The notes beneath the pieces are model-generated. The model was not told the origin of the DNA. It did no database searches and saw only the letters and a program-made list of their open reading frames with translations. Source: a virus (Duplodnaviria; Heunggongvirae; Uroviricota; Caudoviricetes). Taken from it: DNA of 10,409 bases. The first letter of the stretch is position 1. Every line of letters starts with the position of its first letter. The position numbers were made by a program, and so were the translations under genes. The stretch lies in IMG/VR virus record IMGVR_UViG_2563366831_000007; one strand, 5' to 3'. Below, piece after piece: positions 1-5,012 of the stretch.

Positions 1-26
1 GCGGCAGAAAACAACATTTTTTTCAT
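1..26 (-). CDS. 5' end of a gene continuing beyond the left edge; possible bor-like lipoprotein
   Basis: ATG at 26..24 on the minus strand, preceded by AGGA (rc of 34-37) 7 nt upstream. Reads MKKMLFSA..., which resembles the lambda Bor N-terminus (MKKML...) as I recall it. Only 8 codons are visible. Confidence 0.3.
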
Positions 27-87
27 CTTATTATCCTGCATTGTTAAAAACGGCAGAATCCTATGTGACAACAATTAAACGATAGTT

Positions 88-95
88 AAATGGAT
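88..95. repeat. Target-site duplication, left copy (AAATGGAT)
   Basis: The 8-bp AAATGGAT directly abuts the GTAAGCG terminus at 96 and recurs exactly at 2795-2802, directly after the other IS terminus. 8 bp is the TSD length typical of the IS66 family. Confidence 0.8.
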
Positions 96-121
96 GTAAG
101 CGACTCGTCAGAACCGTATTG
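96..121. repeat. IS66-family terminal inverted repeat (tnpC-proximal end)
   Basis: Begins GTAAGCG, the characteristic IS66-family terminus. About 18/26 match to the reverse complement of 2769-2794. Confidence 0.65.
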
Positions 122-125
122 ATAT

Positions 126-1697
126 TTACTGAGAGCTCAGATCAACTTTCCAGGGCAACAGATCGCGTACCCGGTTTGCCGGCCAGTCCTGGATATGTTC
201 AATGACGTAACGCAGCCACTTTTCTGGCTCCACATTGTTCAGACGGCATGTGCCGATCAGCGAGTACAACACCGCCGCATGTTCACCACCGCTGTCGGAA
301 CCCGCGAACATCCAGTTTTTCCGGCCTACGGCCACTCCCCGTAAGGCGTTCTCTGCGATGTTGTTGTCGATTTCCACCCAGCCATTACTGCAGTACACGT
401 TCAGTGCATCCCACTGTTTCAGCAGGTATGCGAACGCTTTTGCCGTATCTGAGTGACGCGACAGTGTTTTCATCTGTTGCTGTATCCAGTCATACAGTGA
501 CTGCATCAGTGGCGCGGCTCTGGCTTTTCTTGCCGCCAGACGCTGTTCTGCTGAACAGCCCCGGACCTCTGCCTCGATGGCATACAGTTCACCGATACGC
601 TGCAGGGCTTCCGTGGTGATGTAGGTGGGCGCTCTTGCATGCACATCGTGGATTTTTCTCCGGGCATGAGCCATACACGCGGCTTCCGTTATTCTGCCGG
701 ATTCGTATAACGCCCGGTAACCACCGTAAGCATCGGCCTGAAGCACACCGCTGTAACCGGCCAGGTGATTTTGTGGATGGATACCTTTCCGGTCCGGACT
801 GTACGCGAACCAGACCGCCGGGGGCATCTGTGAACCGGCGTTACGGTCATCACGGACGTAGACCCACAGCCGGGCTGTCCGGGTTTTACCGCTGCCCGGC
901 TCCTGGACCGGGACGGGGATATCATCAGCATGGACTTTACCGGGCATCAGCACATACTGGCGCAGGACGTCATACAGCGGCTCCAGCAGTTCAGCAACAG
1001 CACCTGTCCAGCGCCCCAGTGTGGCACGGCTCAGCTCCACTCCCTGACGACGGTATATTTCTGACTGGCGGTATAACGGCAGATGGTCTGCATATTTCCC
1101 GGTGACAACATGGGCCAGAAGCCCCGCTCCGGCATAACTGCGTGCAATGGGTTTTGAAGGTACTGGTGCCTGCACGATATGGTCGCACCGGCAACAGGCC
1201 TGTTTCGGACGTTGTGTTTCGATAACCTTAAAGGCGCTGCTGATAAGCTCCAGTTGCTCTGACACATCACATCCCAGAGAACTGAGTTCACCACCACAGG
1301 CAGGACAGCATTCCTCTTCCGGCCGGATAACCCGGGTTTCACGGGGAAGTGAGGCCGGTAACGGTTTACGGGCTGAAGACTGGCGCAGGGCGGATGGCAG
1401 TACCGGGTCATATTGCTCACCCAGCGTTTCCGCCATTTCTTCCTGAAGTGCGCTGATTCGCTCCTGTGCTTCCTGTATCTGCCGTTCGGTTTTTGCACGA
1501 AGTTTTTCTGAGCTTTTACCGAACTGCATACGTTGCAGTTTCGCAACCAGCGCCTTCAGCCGGTTGATTTCGGAAGCATAAGCCGCCACCCGCTGTGAGA
1601 GCAGGCGGTTGTATTCAGCCATCTGGCGGATGGTGTCCTGTTGCGTCTGCAACAGTGCCCGCAGGCGGGCGTTCTCATGAGCAAGTGAGGTGTCCAT
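126..1697 (-). CDS. tnpC: IS66-family transposase TnpC (523 aa)
   Basis: Full-length ORF with an N-terminal coiled-coil-like region (QLRAL..., [12 protein letters not shown]), a Cys cluster (CPACGG...CCRCDH, zinc-ribbon-like) and a large C-terminal catalytic region. It is the third gene of the tnpA-tnpB-tnpC arrangement. Confidence 0.9.
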
Positions 1698-1716
1698 ATC
1701 CTCACTTTACAACGGG

Positions 1717-2064
1717 TTATATGCGGATTCCAGCGCGTTCCGTTCGTTTCGGGTGCTTCCAGTTGATACCTTCAAGAAGCATGGATAACTGAGCCGGAGT
1801 AAGGTGCACCTTGCCGTCACGGGTGACTGGCCAGACGAAGCGGCCCCGCTCCAGGCGTTTGGTGAAGAGGCACAGTCCGTCACTGTCAGCCCACAACACT
1901 TTTATCTGGTCACCCCGGCGTCCGCGGAAGATGAACAGGTGTCCGGAGAACGGGTCATCCTTCAGGACGTTCTGAACTTTTGATGCCAGGCCGTTAAAGC
2001 CATTTCGCATATCGGTGATACCTGCAACCAGCCAGATACGCGAACCTGCAGGGAGAGATATCAT
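1717..2064 (-). CDS. tnpB: IS66-family accessory protein TnpB (Orf2), 115 aa
   Basis: Contains the conserved IS66 Orf2 motif IWLVAGITDMRNGFNGLA...FIFRGRRGDQIKVLW...DGLCLFTKRLERGRFVWP. Its start codon overlaps the tnpA stop (ATGA at 2062-2066). Confidence 0.9.
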   Translation of the reverse strand: MISLPAGSRIWLVAGITDMRNGFNGLASKVQNVLKDDPFSGHLFIFRGRRGDQIKVLWADSDGLCLFTKRLERGRFVWPVTRDGKVHLTPAQLSMLLEGINWKHPKRTERAGIRI

Positions 2065-2741
2065 CAGTGGCTGCTCCCTTTTATTTCGCGGATAAGTGTC
2101 TGTAATAACGCCGGCGTCAGTTTACCTTTAAGCCTGAGAGTTCCGGCCGGCAGAACCAGCTCACAACACAGACTGTCGGACGGTGTATTTATCTGCTCTG
2201 GTTCCTGTGCGGGGGCCGGGATTTTATTATCCGGCTCCGGCGTTAACGTCACGGGAAGCAGTGCCGGCATATTTTTTCCGGAAGGCAGCAGGCCACCTTT
2301 CCGGTATTGATGGCGCCAGTTGAAGAGCAGGTTATCGTTGATTCCGTTTTCCCGGGCGATCTGCGCCACACAGGCTCCGGGCTGCAGTGACTGCTCCACT
2401 AAGGCGATTTTAAACTCATAAGGGAAGTTGGGCCGCCGGGGACGTTTTTTTACCACGGGGGCTTCGGATATAACGGTGCTTTCAGGACGTACGACTGGTA
2501 CCGTGGAAAATTGTCCGTAAAGGCAGGCATCAAGTTCCTGCTCCGACATGCCTGCGGGCAAAGGCCACGAAAGGCCAGCTCTCCGAAAGCGCACGAACAT
2601 ACTACAAACTGTTGATTTTGGTACACCCAGGCGACGCCCGGCCACAACCCGGGGTAAATGTTCTTCAAAGTGAAGACGTAAAGCTTCAGTGATCCAGGTC
2701 CGGTGTTTCATACGATAGTGTCCATTAAAAATGATGGACAT
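2064..2741 (-). CDS. tnpA: IS66-family TnpA (Orf1), 225 aa as drawn; true start uncertain
   Basis: The C-terminal half (PNFPYEFKIALVEQSLQPGACVAQIARENGINDNLLFNWRHQYRKG) is the HTH-like IS66 Orf1 signature. In-frame ATGs at 2741 and 2711 both lack an obvious SD. The product is longer than the ~130 aa I recall for typical IS66 Orf1. Confidence 0.7.
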   Translation of the reverse strand: MSIIFNGHYRMKHRTWITEALRLHFEEHLPRVVAGRRLGVPKSTVCSMFVRFRRAGLSWPLPAGMSEQELDACLYGQFSTVPVVRPESTVISEAPVVKKRPRRPNFPYEFKIALVEQSLQPGACVAQIARENGINDNLLFNWRHQYRKGGLLPSGKNMPALLPVTLTPEPDNKIPAPAQEPEQINTPSDSLCCELVLPAGTLRLKGKLTPALLQTLIREIKGSSH

Positions 2742-2768
2742 TATTTTTGTAGAGCCGGAGGAAACAGA

Positions 2769-2794
2769 CCAGACGGTTTAAATGAGCCGGTTAC
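2769..2794. repeat. IS66-family terminal inverted repeat (tnpA-proximal end)
   Basis: The reverse complement begins GTAACCGG and matches the 96-121 terminus at about 18/26 positions. It is followed immediately by the TSD copy. Confidence 0.65.
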
Positions 2795-2802
2795 AAATGG
2801 AT
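2795..2802. repeat. Target-site duplication, right copy (AAATGGAT)
   Basis: Exact copy of 88-95, abutting the IS terminus. Confidence 0.8.
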
Positions 2803-2931
2803 TGATGAAAATTAAAACTACACAGGTGAGCTCAGACGATTGGAGGGAGTTGGGGACACTCAGAATCCTGTAGAATGAAATAAACCGGTCTATCCGTCCA
2901 TTACCCTTTTAGCTGCGCTGTATCGTCGCCG

Positions 2932-2996
2932 TATTCCCGCATTAACCATGACCGTAGCCCGACGGGGAATTCCTTCTGCGTGAGTGTGCGGGAATA
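2932..2996. repeat. Perfect 10-bp inverted repeat pair (TATTCCCGCA ... TGCGGGAATA) with a 45-bp spacer
   Basis: 2932-2941 is the exact reverse complement of 2987-2996. It lies in the non-coding region upstream of the lipoprotein gene. Confidence 0.6.
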
Positions 2997-3046
2997 ATTA
3001 AAAACGATGCACACCGGGTTTTTACCGCGTTAATGATTCGCGGATT

Positions 3047-3121
3047 TATCCCGGTGCGATGGTGGAAGAAACCGGAAGCTGTATTACAGAAAGTGCTACT
3101 ACTGTATCCCGATGCGATGTA
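3047..3121. repeat. Direct repeat of a TATCCCG-containing 16-mer (TATCCCGGTGCGATGG / TATCCCGATGCGATGT)
   Basis: Two copies at 3047-3062 and 3106-3121 match at 14/16 positions. They share the TAT(T)CCCG core with the inverted repeat at 2932/2987. Confidence 0.55.
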
Positions 3122-3213
3122 TGTAATGTGAGTCAGATAATGGCACAGGATGTGGTGATGTGGCAGTCTGGAACACAGGATATATTGTCAGAATAAGACC
3201 CGTAGGAATAAAA

Positions 3214-3540
3214 ATGAAAAGACGCCTTTTACTACTTTTTCTGTTATCTGTCCTAGCAGTGGGATGCTCGCAGCAAAAAGCTGATGAGCCCCGGCAATTA
3301 GTGACGGTGTATCCACGATATCCGGAATATGCTGCAGCAAATTATATCAAGGGGCTGGTTGAGGTTAAGTTCGATATTGGTGCTGATGGGACTGTGACAC
3401 GGATCGTTTTTCTCCGCTCAGAGCCTCATAATTTGTTTCGTGATGAAGTGGTGAAGGCCATGGCGAAATGGCGATTTGAAAAGAATCGTCCCTGTCAGGG
3501 AGTGAAGAGACAATTTATCTTTACGCCGTCACGTCCCTGA
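3214..3540 (+). CDS. Small lipoprotein consisting of a TonB C-terminal-like domain (about 108 aa precursor)
   Basis: ATG at 3214 with AGGA 6 nt upstream; the track ORF begins at an upstream GTG (3160), which I consider less likely. The N-terminus MKRRLLLLFLLSVLAVG-C is a lipoprotein signal peptide with a lipobox, and Ser at +2 suggests outer-membrane sorting. The mature part aligns with E. coli TonB residues ~150-225 as recalled (YPxxAxxxxIxGxVxVKFDxxxDGxVxxxxxLxSxPxNxFxxEVxxAMxxWRxE), roughly 40% identity over ~70 aa. There is no TM anchor or Pro-rich spacer. Confidence 0.8.
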   Translation: MKRRLLLLFLLSVLAVGCSQQKADEPRQLVTVYPRYPEYAAANYIKGLVEVKFDIGADGTVTRIVFLRSEPHNLFRDEVVKAMAKWRFEKNRPCQGVKRQFIFTPSRP

Positions 3541-3569
3541 TGCTTCCAGGTAGAGAGGGGCTGGAAGCA
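3541..3569 (+). other. Stem-loop (9-bp stem TGCTTCCAG/CTGGAAGCA, 11-nt loop) directly after the lipoprotein stop codon
   Basis: Perfect inverted repeat starting at the first base after the TGA. No T-tract follows, so it is not a canonical intrinsic terminator. Confidence 0.5.
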
Positions 3570-3632
3570 GGAGAAAAATGAAAGAGCCAGCGGTTATATT
3601 TTTGTCATGGCTGACGAGGAATGATGGAAGAA

Positions 3633-3680
3633 GGCGTTGTATGCCACACAACGCCTCACTGTTCATTTCTTCTTTTTCTC
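3633..3680 (+). terminator. Candidate rho-independent terminator for the lipoprotein transcript
   Basis: 8-bp perfect stem GGCGTTGT/ACAACGCC (3633-3640, 3648-3655) with a 7-nt loop, followed by the T-rich run TCACTGTTCATTTCTTCTTTTTCTC. Confidence 0.5.
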
Positions 3681-3842
3681 TAGTGGAACCCGATGAATAA
3701 GAGTTGCACTGGTTTCCGATGAGATGGCGATATACTCGGGCAAAGTATGCTGGCAGTTTTCCAACTGGTCAAAAATACCTGCTCTCGTCTGTTGCAATGC
3801 CTGCAGCATGCGGCGGCAATGCGCCTTGCTTTTGCTAACCAT
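3663..3842 (-). CDS. Hypothetical small protein (59 aa), low confidence
   Basis: ATG at 3842..3840 preceded by a strong SD-like GAGGAAGGAAAG. Predicted sequence MVSKSKAHCRRMLQALQQTRAGIFDQLENCQHTLPEYIAISSETSATLIHRVPLEKKKK. The poly-Lys tail coincides with the plus-strand terminator T-tract, which weakens the call. The longer 117-aa version from 4016 has no SD. Confidence 0.35.
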   Translation of the reverse strand: MVSKSKAHCRRMLQALQQTRAGIFDQLENCQHTLPEYIAISSETSATLIHRVPLEKKKK

Positions 3843-3903
3843 CTTTCCTTCCTCTATCAGTCGCTGCGTGAACTCATCATGGAATACCAGGTAAATGCGG
3901 ATG

Positions 3904-4155
3904 TTATCGGTTTTGGCTACGCAGCATAGTACAAAACGGACAGGTGCATCCCGGGACGGGGGAGGCGTCACATGTCCCTGTGATGGTTGTTCCGGGTAAT
4001 GCACTGTGTGGGGCATAAAAATGTCCGATAATTTTACTTTCTACCGCAGTTAGTTGATTCGTTGGTCCTGGTAGCACATTGGGCGAGGATTTAAATGCCA
4101 GGCAACTGAAGGATGATGTTGCAAGGGAGATAGCGAGAATATTTCTGATTTTCAT
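3904..4155 (-). CDS. Hypothetical small secreted Cys-rich protein (83 aa precursor), low confidence
   Basis: ATG at 4155..4153 with GAGG 9 nt upstream. The N-terminus MKIRNILAISLATSSFSCLA looks like a signal peptide, and the C-terminus carries a Cys cluster (TGTCDASPVPGCTCPFC). No family recognised. The ORF-track version (106 aa from 4224) has an unlikely N-terminal extension. Confidence 0.35.
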   Translation of the reverse strand: MKIRNILAISLATSSFSCLAFKSSPNVLPGPTNQLTAVESKIIGHFYAPHSALPGTTITGTCDASPVPGCTCPFCTMLRSQNR

Positions 4156-4269
4156 TTGATGATGCCTCTGTGTGAAATGACGGTAAACGACGCACTTGTG
4201 CCGGCACATAATAGCAAGCACCATAATAGATCAGATTCGATTCTTGCTGTAAGTGATAATTATTCTCGT

Positions 4270-4304
4270 TTTTCGGGTCCTTTCCGGCGATCCAACAGGC
4301 TACG
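4270..4304 (+). promoter_or_regulatory. cosQ-containing region immediately upstream of cosN (approximate)
   Basis: The sequence ...GGTCCTTTCCGGCGATCCAACAGGCTACG directly precedes the cohesive-end sequence and resembles the lambda right-end sequence as I recall it. Exact cosQ limits are not determinable here. Confidence 0.5.
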
Positions 4305-4316
4305 GGGCGGCGACCT
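4305..4316 (+). promoter_or_regulatory. cosN cohesive-end sequence GGGCGGCGACCT (terminase nicking site)
   Basis: Exact match to the 12-nt lambda cohesive end. The following CGCGGGTTTTCGCTATTTATGAAAATTTTCCGG (4317-4349) matches the lambda left end as recalled. It sits 188 nt upstream of the nu1 start, against 190 in lambda. Confidence 0.9.
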
Positions 4317-4349
4317 CGCGGGTTTTCGCTATTTATGAAAATTTTCCGG

Positions 4350-4470
4350 GGAAAATCATGTCGGTACTTCTCGAACATAACTATTTGTTTTTTCTAATAT
4401 CGAATCCGTAAAAGGTCCGACATGAAAACGCCTAAAAAAGTCATTTTCGGGCACTTTCATGTCGGCCCCT
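4350..4470 (+). promoter_or_regulatory. cosB with three non-lambda R elements (R3 4352-4364 direct, R2 4417-4429 inverted, R1 4453-4465 direct) and a candidate IHF site near 4378-4390
   Basis: Three copies of (T)TTCATGTCGG are arranged direct-inverted-direct like lambda R3-R2-R1, but the repeat sequence differs from the lambda R consensus (CGTTTCC-type). The AT-rich spacer contains rc AAACAAATAGTTA, one mismatch from the IHF consensus WATCAANNNNTTR. Confidence 0.65.
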
Positions 4471-4492
4471 GTATTTATTGTGAGACTGTTTC

Positions 4493-5012
4493 ATGAAGGT
4501 TAATAAAAAGAAACTTGCCGAAATTTTCAACGTGGATCCGCGAACGATTGAACGCTGGCAGTCTCAGGGACTCCCTTGCGTCTCCGGAGGTGGTAAGGGC
4601 GTTGAATCTGTATTTGATACCGCCATGGCAATTCAGTGGTATGCGCAGAGGGAAGCTGATATCGAAAATGAAAAACTCCGTAAAGAGGTTGTGGATTACA
4701 GGGCTGCCAGTGAGGCAGATCTCCAGCCTGGGACTATTGAGTACGAACGCCATCGACTTACGCGTGCGCAGGCCGACGCACAGGAGCTGAAGAATGCCAG
4801 AGACTCCGCAGAGGTGGTGGAAACCGCATTCTGTACTTTCGTGCTGTCACGGATCGCAGGTGAAATTGCCAGTATTCTTGACGGGATCCCTCTCTCGGTA
4901 CAGCGGCGTTTTCCGGAACTGGAAAACCGACATGTTGATTTCCTGAAACGGGATATCATCAAAGCCATGAACAAAGCAGCCGCGCTGGATGAACTGATAC
5001 CGGGGTTGCTGA

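Follow-up and report, generated by a model that had tools for sequence, protein, structure and literature searches.

A complete ISCro1 copy between iss and a TonB_C-domain gene of a phage-21-like prophage of Escherichia coli

What has entered the intergenic region beside a serum-survival gene of a lambdoid prophage, what did the site look like before, and which neighbor, if either, would be affected? The 10,409-bp stretch of DNA analyzed here (the window) carries the late region of a lambdoid E. coli prophage that resembles phage 21, and outside the IS it matches IHE3034 at 99.94% identity over 1,642 bp. The target is the 480-bp intergenic region between iss, so annotated in genomes with an empty site and annotated Bor in phage 21, and a TonB_C-domain gene, whose counterpart in IHE3034 encodes the TonB family protein WP_000830178.1 and is likewise 327 nt long. 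We consider it very likely that a full-length ISCro1, private to this genome and recent, occupies this region, with near-neutrality as its most likely consequence. The features on which the argument draws are as follows.

1-26, minus strand: first 26 nt of iss (bor homologue; serum-survival lipoprotein gene), cut by the window edge and named from annotation in relatives
88-95, no strand: left copy of the target-site duplication (TSD), 8 bp, AAATGGAT, single copy in the empty allele
96-2794, minus strand: complete ISCro1 isoform (IS66 family), 2,699 bp, recognized by end-to-end identity to copies elsewhere
96-118, no strand: terminal inverted repeat at the tnpC end, GTAAGCGACTCGTCAGAACCGTA, matching the other end at 17/23 positions
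126-1697, minus strand: tnpC, DDE transposase, 523 aa (Pfam DDE_Tnp_IS66, 2.5e-103)
1717-2064, minus strand: tnpB, IS66-type accessory protein, 115 aa (Pfam TnpB_IS66, 4.7e-40)
2064-2741, minus strand: tnpA, accessory protein with a helix-turn-helix domain, 225 aa (Pfam HTH_Tnp_1, 8.6e-15)
2772-2794, no strand: terminal inverted repeat at the tnpA end, reverse complement GTAACCGGCTCATTTAAACCGTC, 17/23
2795-2802, no strand: right copy of the TSD, 8 bp, AAATGGAT, a perfect match to the left copy
3214-3540, plus strand: intact TonB_C-domain gene (the "moron" of the initial annotation), 108 aa (Pfam TonB_C, 7.3e-13)

Window positions 96-2794 form a discrete 2,699-bp unit. Copies in other genomes match it at 99.9-100% and diverge immediately outside these positions, so the ends of the element are fixed without the help of the TSD. 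Identity is 100% end to end with copies L003, L009 and L011 at other E. coli loci, and 99.93-99.96% with copies L001, L004, L008 and L010. Both AAATGGAT repeats directly abut these ends, giving the 8-bp TSD of the IS66 family, and this octamer is present just twice in the window, at 88-95 and 2795-2802 (mean of 0.42 matches in shuffled windows, with 12/200 shuffles reaching two). Six other E. coli copies of ISCro1 each have their own 8-bp TSD (GGTACTTC, GCCTGAAC, CAAAAAGC, GAAGGCCA, GTTTTTAC and AATGGGAT), as do 13 of the 19 full-length copies on IMG/VR contigs, where the duplication is perfect. A target consensus was considered and set aside: preferences in the IMG/VR flanks are weak, with a maximum of 0.44 bits per position, and AAATGGAT fits them partly. 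Elements of the IS66 family have imperfect terminal inverted repeats starting 5'-GTAA, and here the 23-nt repeats (GTAAGCGACTC... and GTAACCGGCTC...) start with GTAA and are complementary at 17/23 positions. A repeat search gave the pair as 95-117 and 2773-2795, a one-base shift that arises because T95 pairs with A2795. Inverted repeats of equal quality occur by chance within the 3 kb, and it is therefore their position that counts, not their score.

The initial annotation proposed that the pre-insertion sequence could be rebuilt, and the rebuilt junction (...CGATAGTTAAATGGATTGATGAAAATT...) is indeed found verbatim in IHE3034 and many other genomes. Among complete E. coli genomes, the empty site is exact over 200/200 nt in the 30 records listed; at 99% identity or more it is found in 107 records, its exact 34-mer occurs in at least 120 IMG/VR viral contigs, and phage 21 has the uninterrupted stretch at 99%. 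With the empty allele common and copies elsewhere sharing the same ends, the earlier description of a discrete unit stands. So does its placement inside the prophage, between iss and the TonB_C-domain accessory gene, and the statement that no recognizable ORF is interrupted: in the empty allele just a 23-codon ORF crosses the point of insertion, and the phage 21 record has no annotated feature there. An Rfam scan of 1-4600 (E-value up to 1) found nothing within or beside the IS, its two hits being chance microRNA-type matches near 4408-4472.

The element encodes the three-gene IS66 layout, tnpA-tnpB-tnpC, and all three products score above curated Pfam and NCBIfam cut-offs: 295.8 bits for TnpA against IS66_access_TnpA (cut-off 150), 128.9 bits for TnpB against IS66_TnpB (cut-off 50), and 477.9 bits for TnpC against transpos_IS66 (cut-off 180). 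TnpC has all the modules of an IS66-type DDE transposase, namely the leucine zipper (LZ_Tnp_IS66), the zinc finger (zf-IS66), the DDE domain (DDE_Tnp_IS66, model positions 1-283 of 284) and the C-terminal domain (DDE_Tnp_IS66_C). The proposals of an IS66-family insertion with an exact TSD and of intact ORFs thus hold, the latter as three complete minus-strand frames. The ATGA overlap described between tnpA and tnpB does not: the junction reads CAC-TGA-TG-ATA, a 1-nt TGATG overlap in place of a 4-nt stop/start. From the tnpB stop to the tnpC start there are 19 nt, with a GAGGA Shine-Dalgarno sequence 4 nt 5' of tnpC. The IS66_access_TnpA model starts at residue 13 of TnpA, and Met11 may be the true start. 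The tnpB gene of IS66 elements has no relation to the RNA-guided TnpB of IS200/IS605.

By the ISfinder convention, more than 90% nucleotide or 95% amino acid identity denotes the same IS or an isoform. Compared with a copy on plasmid pCROD1 of Citrobacter rodentium ICC168, which is a PGAP-labeled genomic copy distinct from the ISfinder reference entry, the window element is 98.07% identical in nucleotide sequence without gaps, and TnpA, TnpB and TnpC are 98.2, 99.1 and 98.3% identical. On these figures the element is an isoform of ISCro1, an already known IS, the name resting on this likeness to one C. rodentium copy and on the PGAP label of identical E. coli copies ("IS66-like element ISCro1 family"). 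The pCROD1 copy sits in the last 4.4 kb of the plasmid; ISCro1 is absent from pCROD2 and from the first 50 kb of pCROD1. The name ISCro1 was first given in C. rodentium ICC168, which has a count of 24 copies (PMC3072379). The C. rodentium element shares the length of 2,699 bp and the gene layout of ours, but 52 substitutions separate the window element from the pCROD1 copy, some of them in the terminal repeats, where the tnpA end reads GTAACCGG in the window element and GTAAGCGT in the C. rodentium copy. The window element thus represents the E. coli/Shigella/Salmonella/Klebsiella isoform. An "ISCro1" of EC958 is given as 2,824 bp (PMC8764528), compared with 2,699 bp here.

More distant relatives share the architecture. 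ISEc8, found in EHEC and Stx phages, also belongs to the IS66 family and also resides in lambdoid prophages, but it is about 71% identical in nucleotide sequence, over part of tnpC only, and is not the same element. IS679 and IS66 are the characterized type members of the family, and all three genes of IS679 were reportedly shown to be required. Both resemble the window element in that tnpB begins at the stop of tnpA, with tnpC following after about 20 bp, and in their GTAA termini, 8-bp TSD and length of about 2.7 kb; the window element is a different IS species, with its own TGATG stop/start junction.

These features suggest a simple history. TnpC, aided by the accessory proteins TnpA and TnpB, would have acted by the usual DDE transposition route, a chemistry drawn from knowledge of the family, and a staggered 8-bp cut at AAATGGAT followed by gap repair would have produced the duplication. 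ISCro1 would so have entered the iss/TonB_C intergenic region, breaking no gene. A search of 5,426 complete E. coli genomes found neither occupied junction, and the left one has no match in the genome_contigs, viral_contigs and metagenome_contigs collections, a result to be read knowing that short-read assemblies usually break at IS copies, which would hide an occupied junction. Given this absence, the insertion is probably private to its genome, in the sense of absent from the collections searched, and probably recent in evolutionary terms.

What would such an insertion do to its neighbors? The iss ATG is 69 bp downstream of the IS end, the three IS genes run in the direction of iss (minus strand) and not of the TonB-like gene, and a consensus scan found no terminator-like site from the tnpC stop to iss. 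Any regulatory effect would therefore more likely concern iss than the TonB-like gene. The closeness of the IS end to the iss start codon was overlooked in the initial annotation. Homology to bor of phage λ and borD of K-12 predicts the location of the iss promoter, with two elements.

76-92, minus strand: predicted PhoP box of the iss promoter, CATTTA-ACTAT-CGTTTA, aligned with the λ bor/K-12 borD box
58-63, minus strand: predicted -10 hexamer of iss, TAGGAT, 12 nt downstream of the box, read from the sequence

λ bor and K-12 borD have the perfect box TGTTTA-GGGTT-TGTTTA at the aligned position and TACGAT at the same spacing as the iss TAGGAT. PhoP boxes are described as (T/G)GTTTA-N5-(T/G)GTTTA, or with a (T/C)ATTTA submotif as first repeat, 12 nt upstream of the -10 element (PMC3335776), and borD (vboR) of K-12 is a member of the PhoP regulon with PhoP-dependent transcription (PMC5740661, PMC2789325). 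The iss box scores 11/12 under a relaxed consensus, where 10/12 or better is reached by chance in about 12% of shuffled 300-nt sequences, and the predicted elements have the geometry of PhoP promoter architecture I/II: a (T/C)ATTTA-type box, 12 nt and a -10. A strict consensus scan found no sigma-70 promoter at this predicted promoter, as expected for an activator-dependent promoter, yet no confirmation of one. The predicted box lies 3 bp from the IS end, still attached to iss. A study of prophage genes in serum survival (PMC7724020) concerns other genes.

The predicted PhoP box and -10 element would thus stay with iss, and a near-neutral insertion appears the most likely outcome. The alternative that survives best, although we regard it as unlikely, is that the insertion changes the level of iss expression or its dependence on Mg2+/PhoP, because the DNA upstream has been replaced or because transcription reads through from tnpABC. 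The adjacency of the IS end to the box, the short distance to the iss ATG, the shared direction of transcription and the lack of a terminator-like site in between all speak in its favor. Some PhoP promoters, moreover, have upstream elements that stimulate transcription or act against silencing by H-NS (PMC3335776). A precedent comes from the afa/dr locus of E. coli ST131, where ISCro1 sits between divergent genes, 440 bp upstream of afaA, and lowers transcription of afaA by 2.5 log2-fold (PMC8764528). The two cases have in common the IS, an intergenic control region and a virulence-associated neighbor; the effect at afa was measured with the IS 440 bp from the gene, whereas the one suggested for iss, with the IS 69 bp away, is read from sequence. 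Against a change in iss, the predicted promoter elements are intact, the empty allele has no second PhoP box of 10/12 or better within 250 bp upstream, and scans found no hybrid or outward promoter at the tnpC end. IS transposase operons are also generally weakly expressed. More doubtful still is the stronger version in which this ISCro1 copy rewires iss, through an uncoupled context or PhoP-independent read-through, and thereby alters serum resistance. If iss expression were changed, this would add to the cases in which an IS drives regulatory variation of a virulence-associated gene, comparable to ISCro1 at afa.

Near-neutrality for iss leaves the activity of the element itself to consider. 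ISCro1 occupies 14,208 places in 3,018 E. coli genomes, with up to 34 per genome; more than half of all complete E. coli genomes have it, its best place is at least 99% identical to the window element in 1,793 records, and plasmids of Salmonella, Klebsiella and Shigella carry copies that are 100% identical. Polymorphic sites and identical copies elsewhere suggest that the element is probably active, and the earlier suggestion of a recent and possibly still active element gains likelihood from the copies 100% identical at other sites and from the intact ORFs. We find it improbable that the copy, intact-looking as it is, is transpositionally silent, for example through host regulation, and persists as a neutral scar that adds homology for IS-mediated prophage decay. 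Intact ORFs and a TSD are no proof of activity; in Nord58, a copy 16 bp away within this region has no TSD and is bordered on one side by foreign DNA, which shows that copies of this kind seed rearrangements, and matching TSDs are missing from 6/19 full-length IMG/VR copies. Against silence stand the 100% identity that the window copy shares with copies located elsewhere in several strains and the number of places per genome, a pattern that an active master sequence produces.

It is very unlikely that the IS alters expression of the moron (3214-3540), whether by cutting it off from signals further upstream or by transcription running outward from the tnpA end: that end does face the moron, as the initial annotation held, and elements left of window position 95 that acted on the moron across the shared intergenic region would now be 2.7 kb off, but all IS genes run away from it, toward iss, its ATG lies 411 bp from the IS, and weak candidate promoters (3008-3188) and a λ-conserved block (2911-3021) remain on its side. 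The idea of outward transcription finds no support at the tnpA end, where no sigma-70-like outward promoter was detected. In both the occupied and the empty allele, consensus scans for promoters and terminators gave nothing at either IS end, with counts below chance expectation, and a laxer promoter scan returned 8/12 matches only. On the plus strand at 2700-2802 the one promoter-like site is an 8/12 match inside tnpA.

Beyond annotation the significance is small, as this is a known and extremely common IS that also occurs on plasmids from several genera of enterobacteria. The record nevertheless provides a clean, fully documented pair of occupied and empty alleles. It also corrects the neighbor exposed to the IS, which is iss, a virulence-associated serum-survival gene, and not the TonB-like gene, and it points to a bor/iss promoter with predicted PhoP-box geometry that the insertion just spared.

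In complete genomes, at least six other ISCro1 insertion points lie between iss and the terminase genes. There is insufficient evidence for the weaker variant reading of the lysis-to-terminase stretch of lambdoid prophages as a regional ISCro1 hot spot: these are at least six of 14,208 places, and 0 of the 70 unique IMG/VR ISCro1 flanks fall between iss and Nu1. Host range could not be drawn from a scan of genome_contigs with the IS end, which returned only two mis-binned "Clostridiales" MAG contigs and was uninformative. The nearby insertions retrieved from complete genomes all face one way with respect to the terminase genes, but they were discounted as evidence for an orientation bias, as the search joins same-strand pieces only and opposite-orientation cases rank low. 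An insertion in the opposite orientation exists in the homologous head-gene region (L179, IMG/VR flanks).

The insertion in this E. coli prophage is real, correctly delimited and ordinary: the element itself is already known, and this is one more copy of a very abundant IS at a new private site. The sequence of 88-2802 is as the initial annotation gave it, with AAATGGAT at both edges and IS66-family ORFs inside. The window has just two copies of this 8-bp duplication, 88-95 and 2795-2802, and they enclose an element of 2,699 bp (96-2794). Its first bases are GTAAGCGACTC, its last the reverse complement of GTAACCGGCTC, and 17 of 23 positions of these termini pair. The element encodes:

2064-2741, minus strand: tnpA, 225 aa; Pfam HTH_Tnp_1
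1717-2064, minus strand: tnpB, 115 aa; Pfam TnpB_IS66
126-1697, minus strand: tnpC, 523 aa; Pfam LZ_Tnp_IS66, zf-IS66, DDE_Tnp_IS66, DDE_Tnp_IS66_C

All three products score far above the curated cut-offs of the NCBIfam equivalog models for IS66 TnpA, TnpB and transposase, and the DDE_Tnp_IS66 match in tnpC covers 283/284 positions of the Pfam model (E = 2.5e-103). Where tnpA stops and tnpB starts, the sequence is CAC-TGA-TG-ATA, a TGATG junction with one base common to both genes, not the four-base ATGA overlap originally described; tnpC starts 19 nt past the tnpB stop, with GAGGA in front of it. No Shine-Dalgarno sequence precedes the annotated tnpA ATG at 2741, and residue 13 is where the match to the NCBIfam TnpA model starts; Met11 (ATG at 2711) may be the true start.

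The comparisons establish IS66-family anatomy, the 8-bp duplication, a site that is occupied here and empty in other genomes, and numerous identical copies at other loci. From what is known of the family, TnpC would act as a DDE transposase making cuts staggered by 8 bp, and two accessory proteins, the helix-turn-helix protein TnpA and TnpB, would be needed as well, a requirement reportedly demonstrated for IS679 (Han et al. 2001). The TnpB of IS66 elements has no relation to the RNA-guided protein of that name in IS200/IS605, a point also made in a PGAP note. How IS66 elements move is still poorly characterised in its details (PMC12898284).

Identical copies are labelled "IS66-like element ISCro1 family transposase" by PGAP, and a copy with the ISCro1 label is found on the Citrobacter rodentium ICC168 plasmid pCROD1. 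The window element is 98.07% identical to the pCROD1 copy over all 2,699 bp with zero gaps (TnpA 98.2%, TnpB 99.1%, TnpC 98.3%). Under the usual ISfinder convention, identity at this level denotes an isoform of the same IS; judged by the PGAP labels and its similarity to the pCROD1 copy, the element is thus an ISCro1 isoform. ISCro1 was named in C. rodentium, where 24 copies were counted (PMC3072379), and a 100%-identical isoform is present on Salmonella, Klebsiella and Shigella plasmids. In contrast, ISEc8, an IS66-family member more familiar from EHEC, shares just ~71% identity with a portion of tnpC. The copies examined here, including that of C. rodentium, measure 2,696-2,700 bp, versus the 2,824 bp given for ISCro1 in EC958 (PMC8764528). 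The exact enterobacterial IS end also appears in two contigs binned as "Clostridiales bacterium" MAGs (L006, SFEB01000082.1; L007, SFGJ01000083.1), one of them exactly 2,699 bp long and consisting of the IS alone, which probably reflects mis-binning or contamination.

Searched by megablast with 96-2794, a set of 5,426 complete E. coli genomes gave 14,208 ISCro1 places, spread over 3,018 of them with a maximum of 34 in one genome; in 1,793 records the best place was at least 99% identical to the element. At all loci fetched, the match spans bases 1 to 2,699 and ends exactly there, while flanks and duplications vary:

ISCro1 copies at other loci (strain, locus, duplication, remark)
IMT5155, L003: GGTACTTC; IS 100% identical
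TB354, L009: GCCTGAAC; IS 100% identical
EC130, L011: CAAAAAGC; IS 100% identical
98206, L001: GAAGGCCA; IS within the TonB-like gene
NMBU_W05E18, L010: GTTTTTAC; at window 3018-3025
Res13-Lact-PEB08-01, L004: AATGGGAT; P2-like tail region

Perfect 8-bp duplications, no two alike, also flank 13 of 19 full-length copies on IMG/VR viral contigs. The element at 96-2794 is a discrete unit, and its duplication is not coincidental, because two given 8-mers match with a probability of 1.5e-5 and the copy comparisons set the ends independently of the duplication. Target preference is weak: a logo built from 70 unique IMG/VR flanks, reaching at most 0.44 bits at any position, shows A/T at duplication positions 3, 4 and 6, and G and C 3 and 2 bases outside.

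The empty site, rebuilt as a 200-nt query by removing 96-2802, is matched at 200/200 positions in each of the 30 complete genomes listed, among them IHE3034, APEC O78, APEC O18 and PMV-1, and at ≥99% in a total of 107 complete-genome records. IHE3034, which is 99.94% identical to the non-IS part of the window over 1,642 bp, contains verbatim the pre-insertion junction that the initial annotation had predicted, so the empty site is real in related genomes. Phage 21 has the same arrangement, uninterrupted, at 99%, and an exact 34-mer across the empty site occurs in at least 120 IMG/VR contigs. Occupied junctions, on either side, were found in none of the complete E. coli genomes at ≥80% query coverage, and the left-junction 30-mer in no species-representative genome, IMG/VR contig or JGI metagenome. 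As occupied junctions are absent from the collections searched, the insertion is private to its source genome; it is probably recent, since this copy is 100% identical to copies elsewhere.

The only point beyond annotation is a possible perturbation of a neighbour, iss rather than the TonB-like gene. The following features flank the element:

ATG at 26, minus strand: iss (bor homologue), cut by the left window edge
58-63, minus strand: TAGGAT, 12 nt past the iss box, by homology to TACGAT of lambda bor/borD
76-92, minus strand: predicted PhoP box of iss, CATTTA-ACTAT-CGTTTA, by homology to lambda bor/borD
3214-3540: intact TonB_C-domain gene, 108 aa, right of the IS

Further right lies a small hypothetical gene, followed by the genes for a Nu1/A-type terminase, the portal and the head. 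In the empty allele no annotated or plausible ORF crosses the insertion point, in agreement with the earlier view that none was interrupted. It is indeed the tnpA end that faces the TonB-like gene, as had been proposed, but the suggested outward transcription into that gene finds no support: tnpA, tnpB and tnpC are co-directional with iss and transcribed toward it, away from the TonB-like gene, and the scans of both IS ends found no outward promoter resembling the consensus. The distance from the IS to the ATG is 69 bp for iss and 411 bp for the TonB-like gene, with no terminator-like site between the tnpC stop (126) and iss.

When the region upstream of iss is aligned with lambda bor and K-12 borD, both of these show a perfect PhoP box, TGTTTA-GGGTT-TGTTTA, with TACGAT exactly 12 nt downstream. 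Phage 21 carries the same version as iss, CATTTA-ACTAT-CGTTTA 12 nt upstream of TAGGAT. Work on Salmonella promoters describes the PhoP-box consensus, a version with (T/C)ATTTA as the first repeat, and the 12-nt spacing of "architecture I/II" (PMC3335776); in E. coli, borD/vboR is counted among the genes of the PhoP regulon (PMC5740661; PMC2789325). A box of this quality (≥10/12) arises in ~12% of 300-nt shuffles, and no second PhoP box was found near the predicted one. The PhoP-box geometry of the bor/iss promoter region (27-95, minus strand, in the window) suggests that prophage bor/iss genes may be wired into the host PhoPQ regulon. The IS ends 3 bp upstream of the predicted box, and the duplication ATCCATTT includes its first five bases, the iss-proximal copy leaving the box whole. 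By homology, the core iss promoter is predicted to survive the insertion, which would change the DNA immediately upstream of the box and could allow read-through from tnpC. ST131 offers a direct precedent for an effect of ISCro1 on an adjacent gene: inserted in the control region of afa, the element reduces both afaA transcription and promoter activity (PMC8764528).

The TonB-like product starts MKRRLLLLFLLSVLAVGC, which by eye looks like the signal peptide of a lipoprotein, lipobox included; the gene is widespread beside bor/iss, phage 21 included. Upstream of it, a 112-bp non-coding block (2911-3021) without an Rfam match is 83% identical to lambda 46866-46975, which sits between bor and lambdap78 with no TonB-like gene there. 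Just upstream of the small terminase gene, 4408-4472 gives two weak, chance Rfam matches to microRNA precursors on opposite strands, suggesting hairpin-forming sequence; it lies close to the position expected for cos, given that phage 21 has cosQ close to the end of its genome.

Nearly identical ISCro1 copies occupy at least five other positions of the iss-to-terminase stretch (2803-4500 equivalents) in other E. coli strains (L001, L003, L008, L010 and L011); the stretch may be a regional hot spot. The EC130 copy lies within the small terminase gene beside a deletion, and the TB354 copy, in a prophage with a different organisation, disrupts a gene for a Rha-family regulator. Nearby insertions retrieved from complete genomes share one orientation relative to the terminase genes, an apparent bias that we reject as an artefact of the search joining same-strand pieces, an opposite-orientation case being present in IMG/VR. 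In Nord58 (L008), the right junction is 16 bp from the window's site, there is no duplication, and the left side carries foreign DNA with a truncated lipocalin gene. This layout is evidence of IS-mediated deletion or recombination in that prophage, and it shows ISCro1 copies giving rise to rearrangements in prophages.
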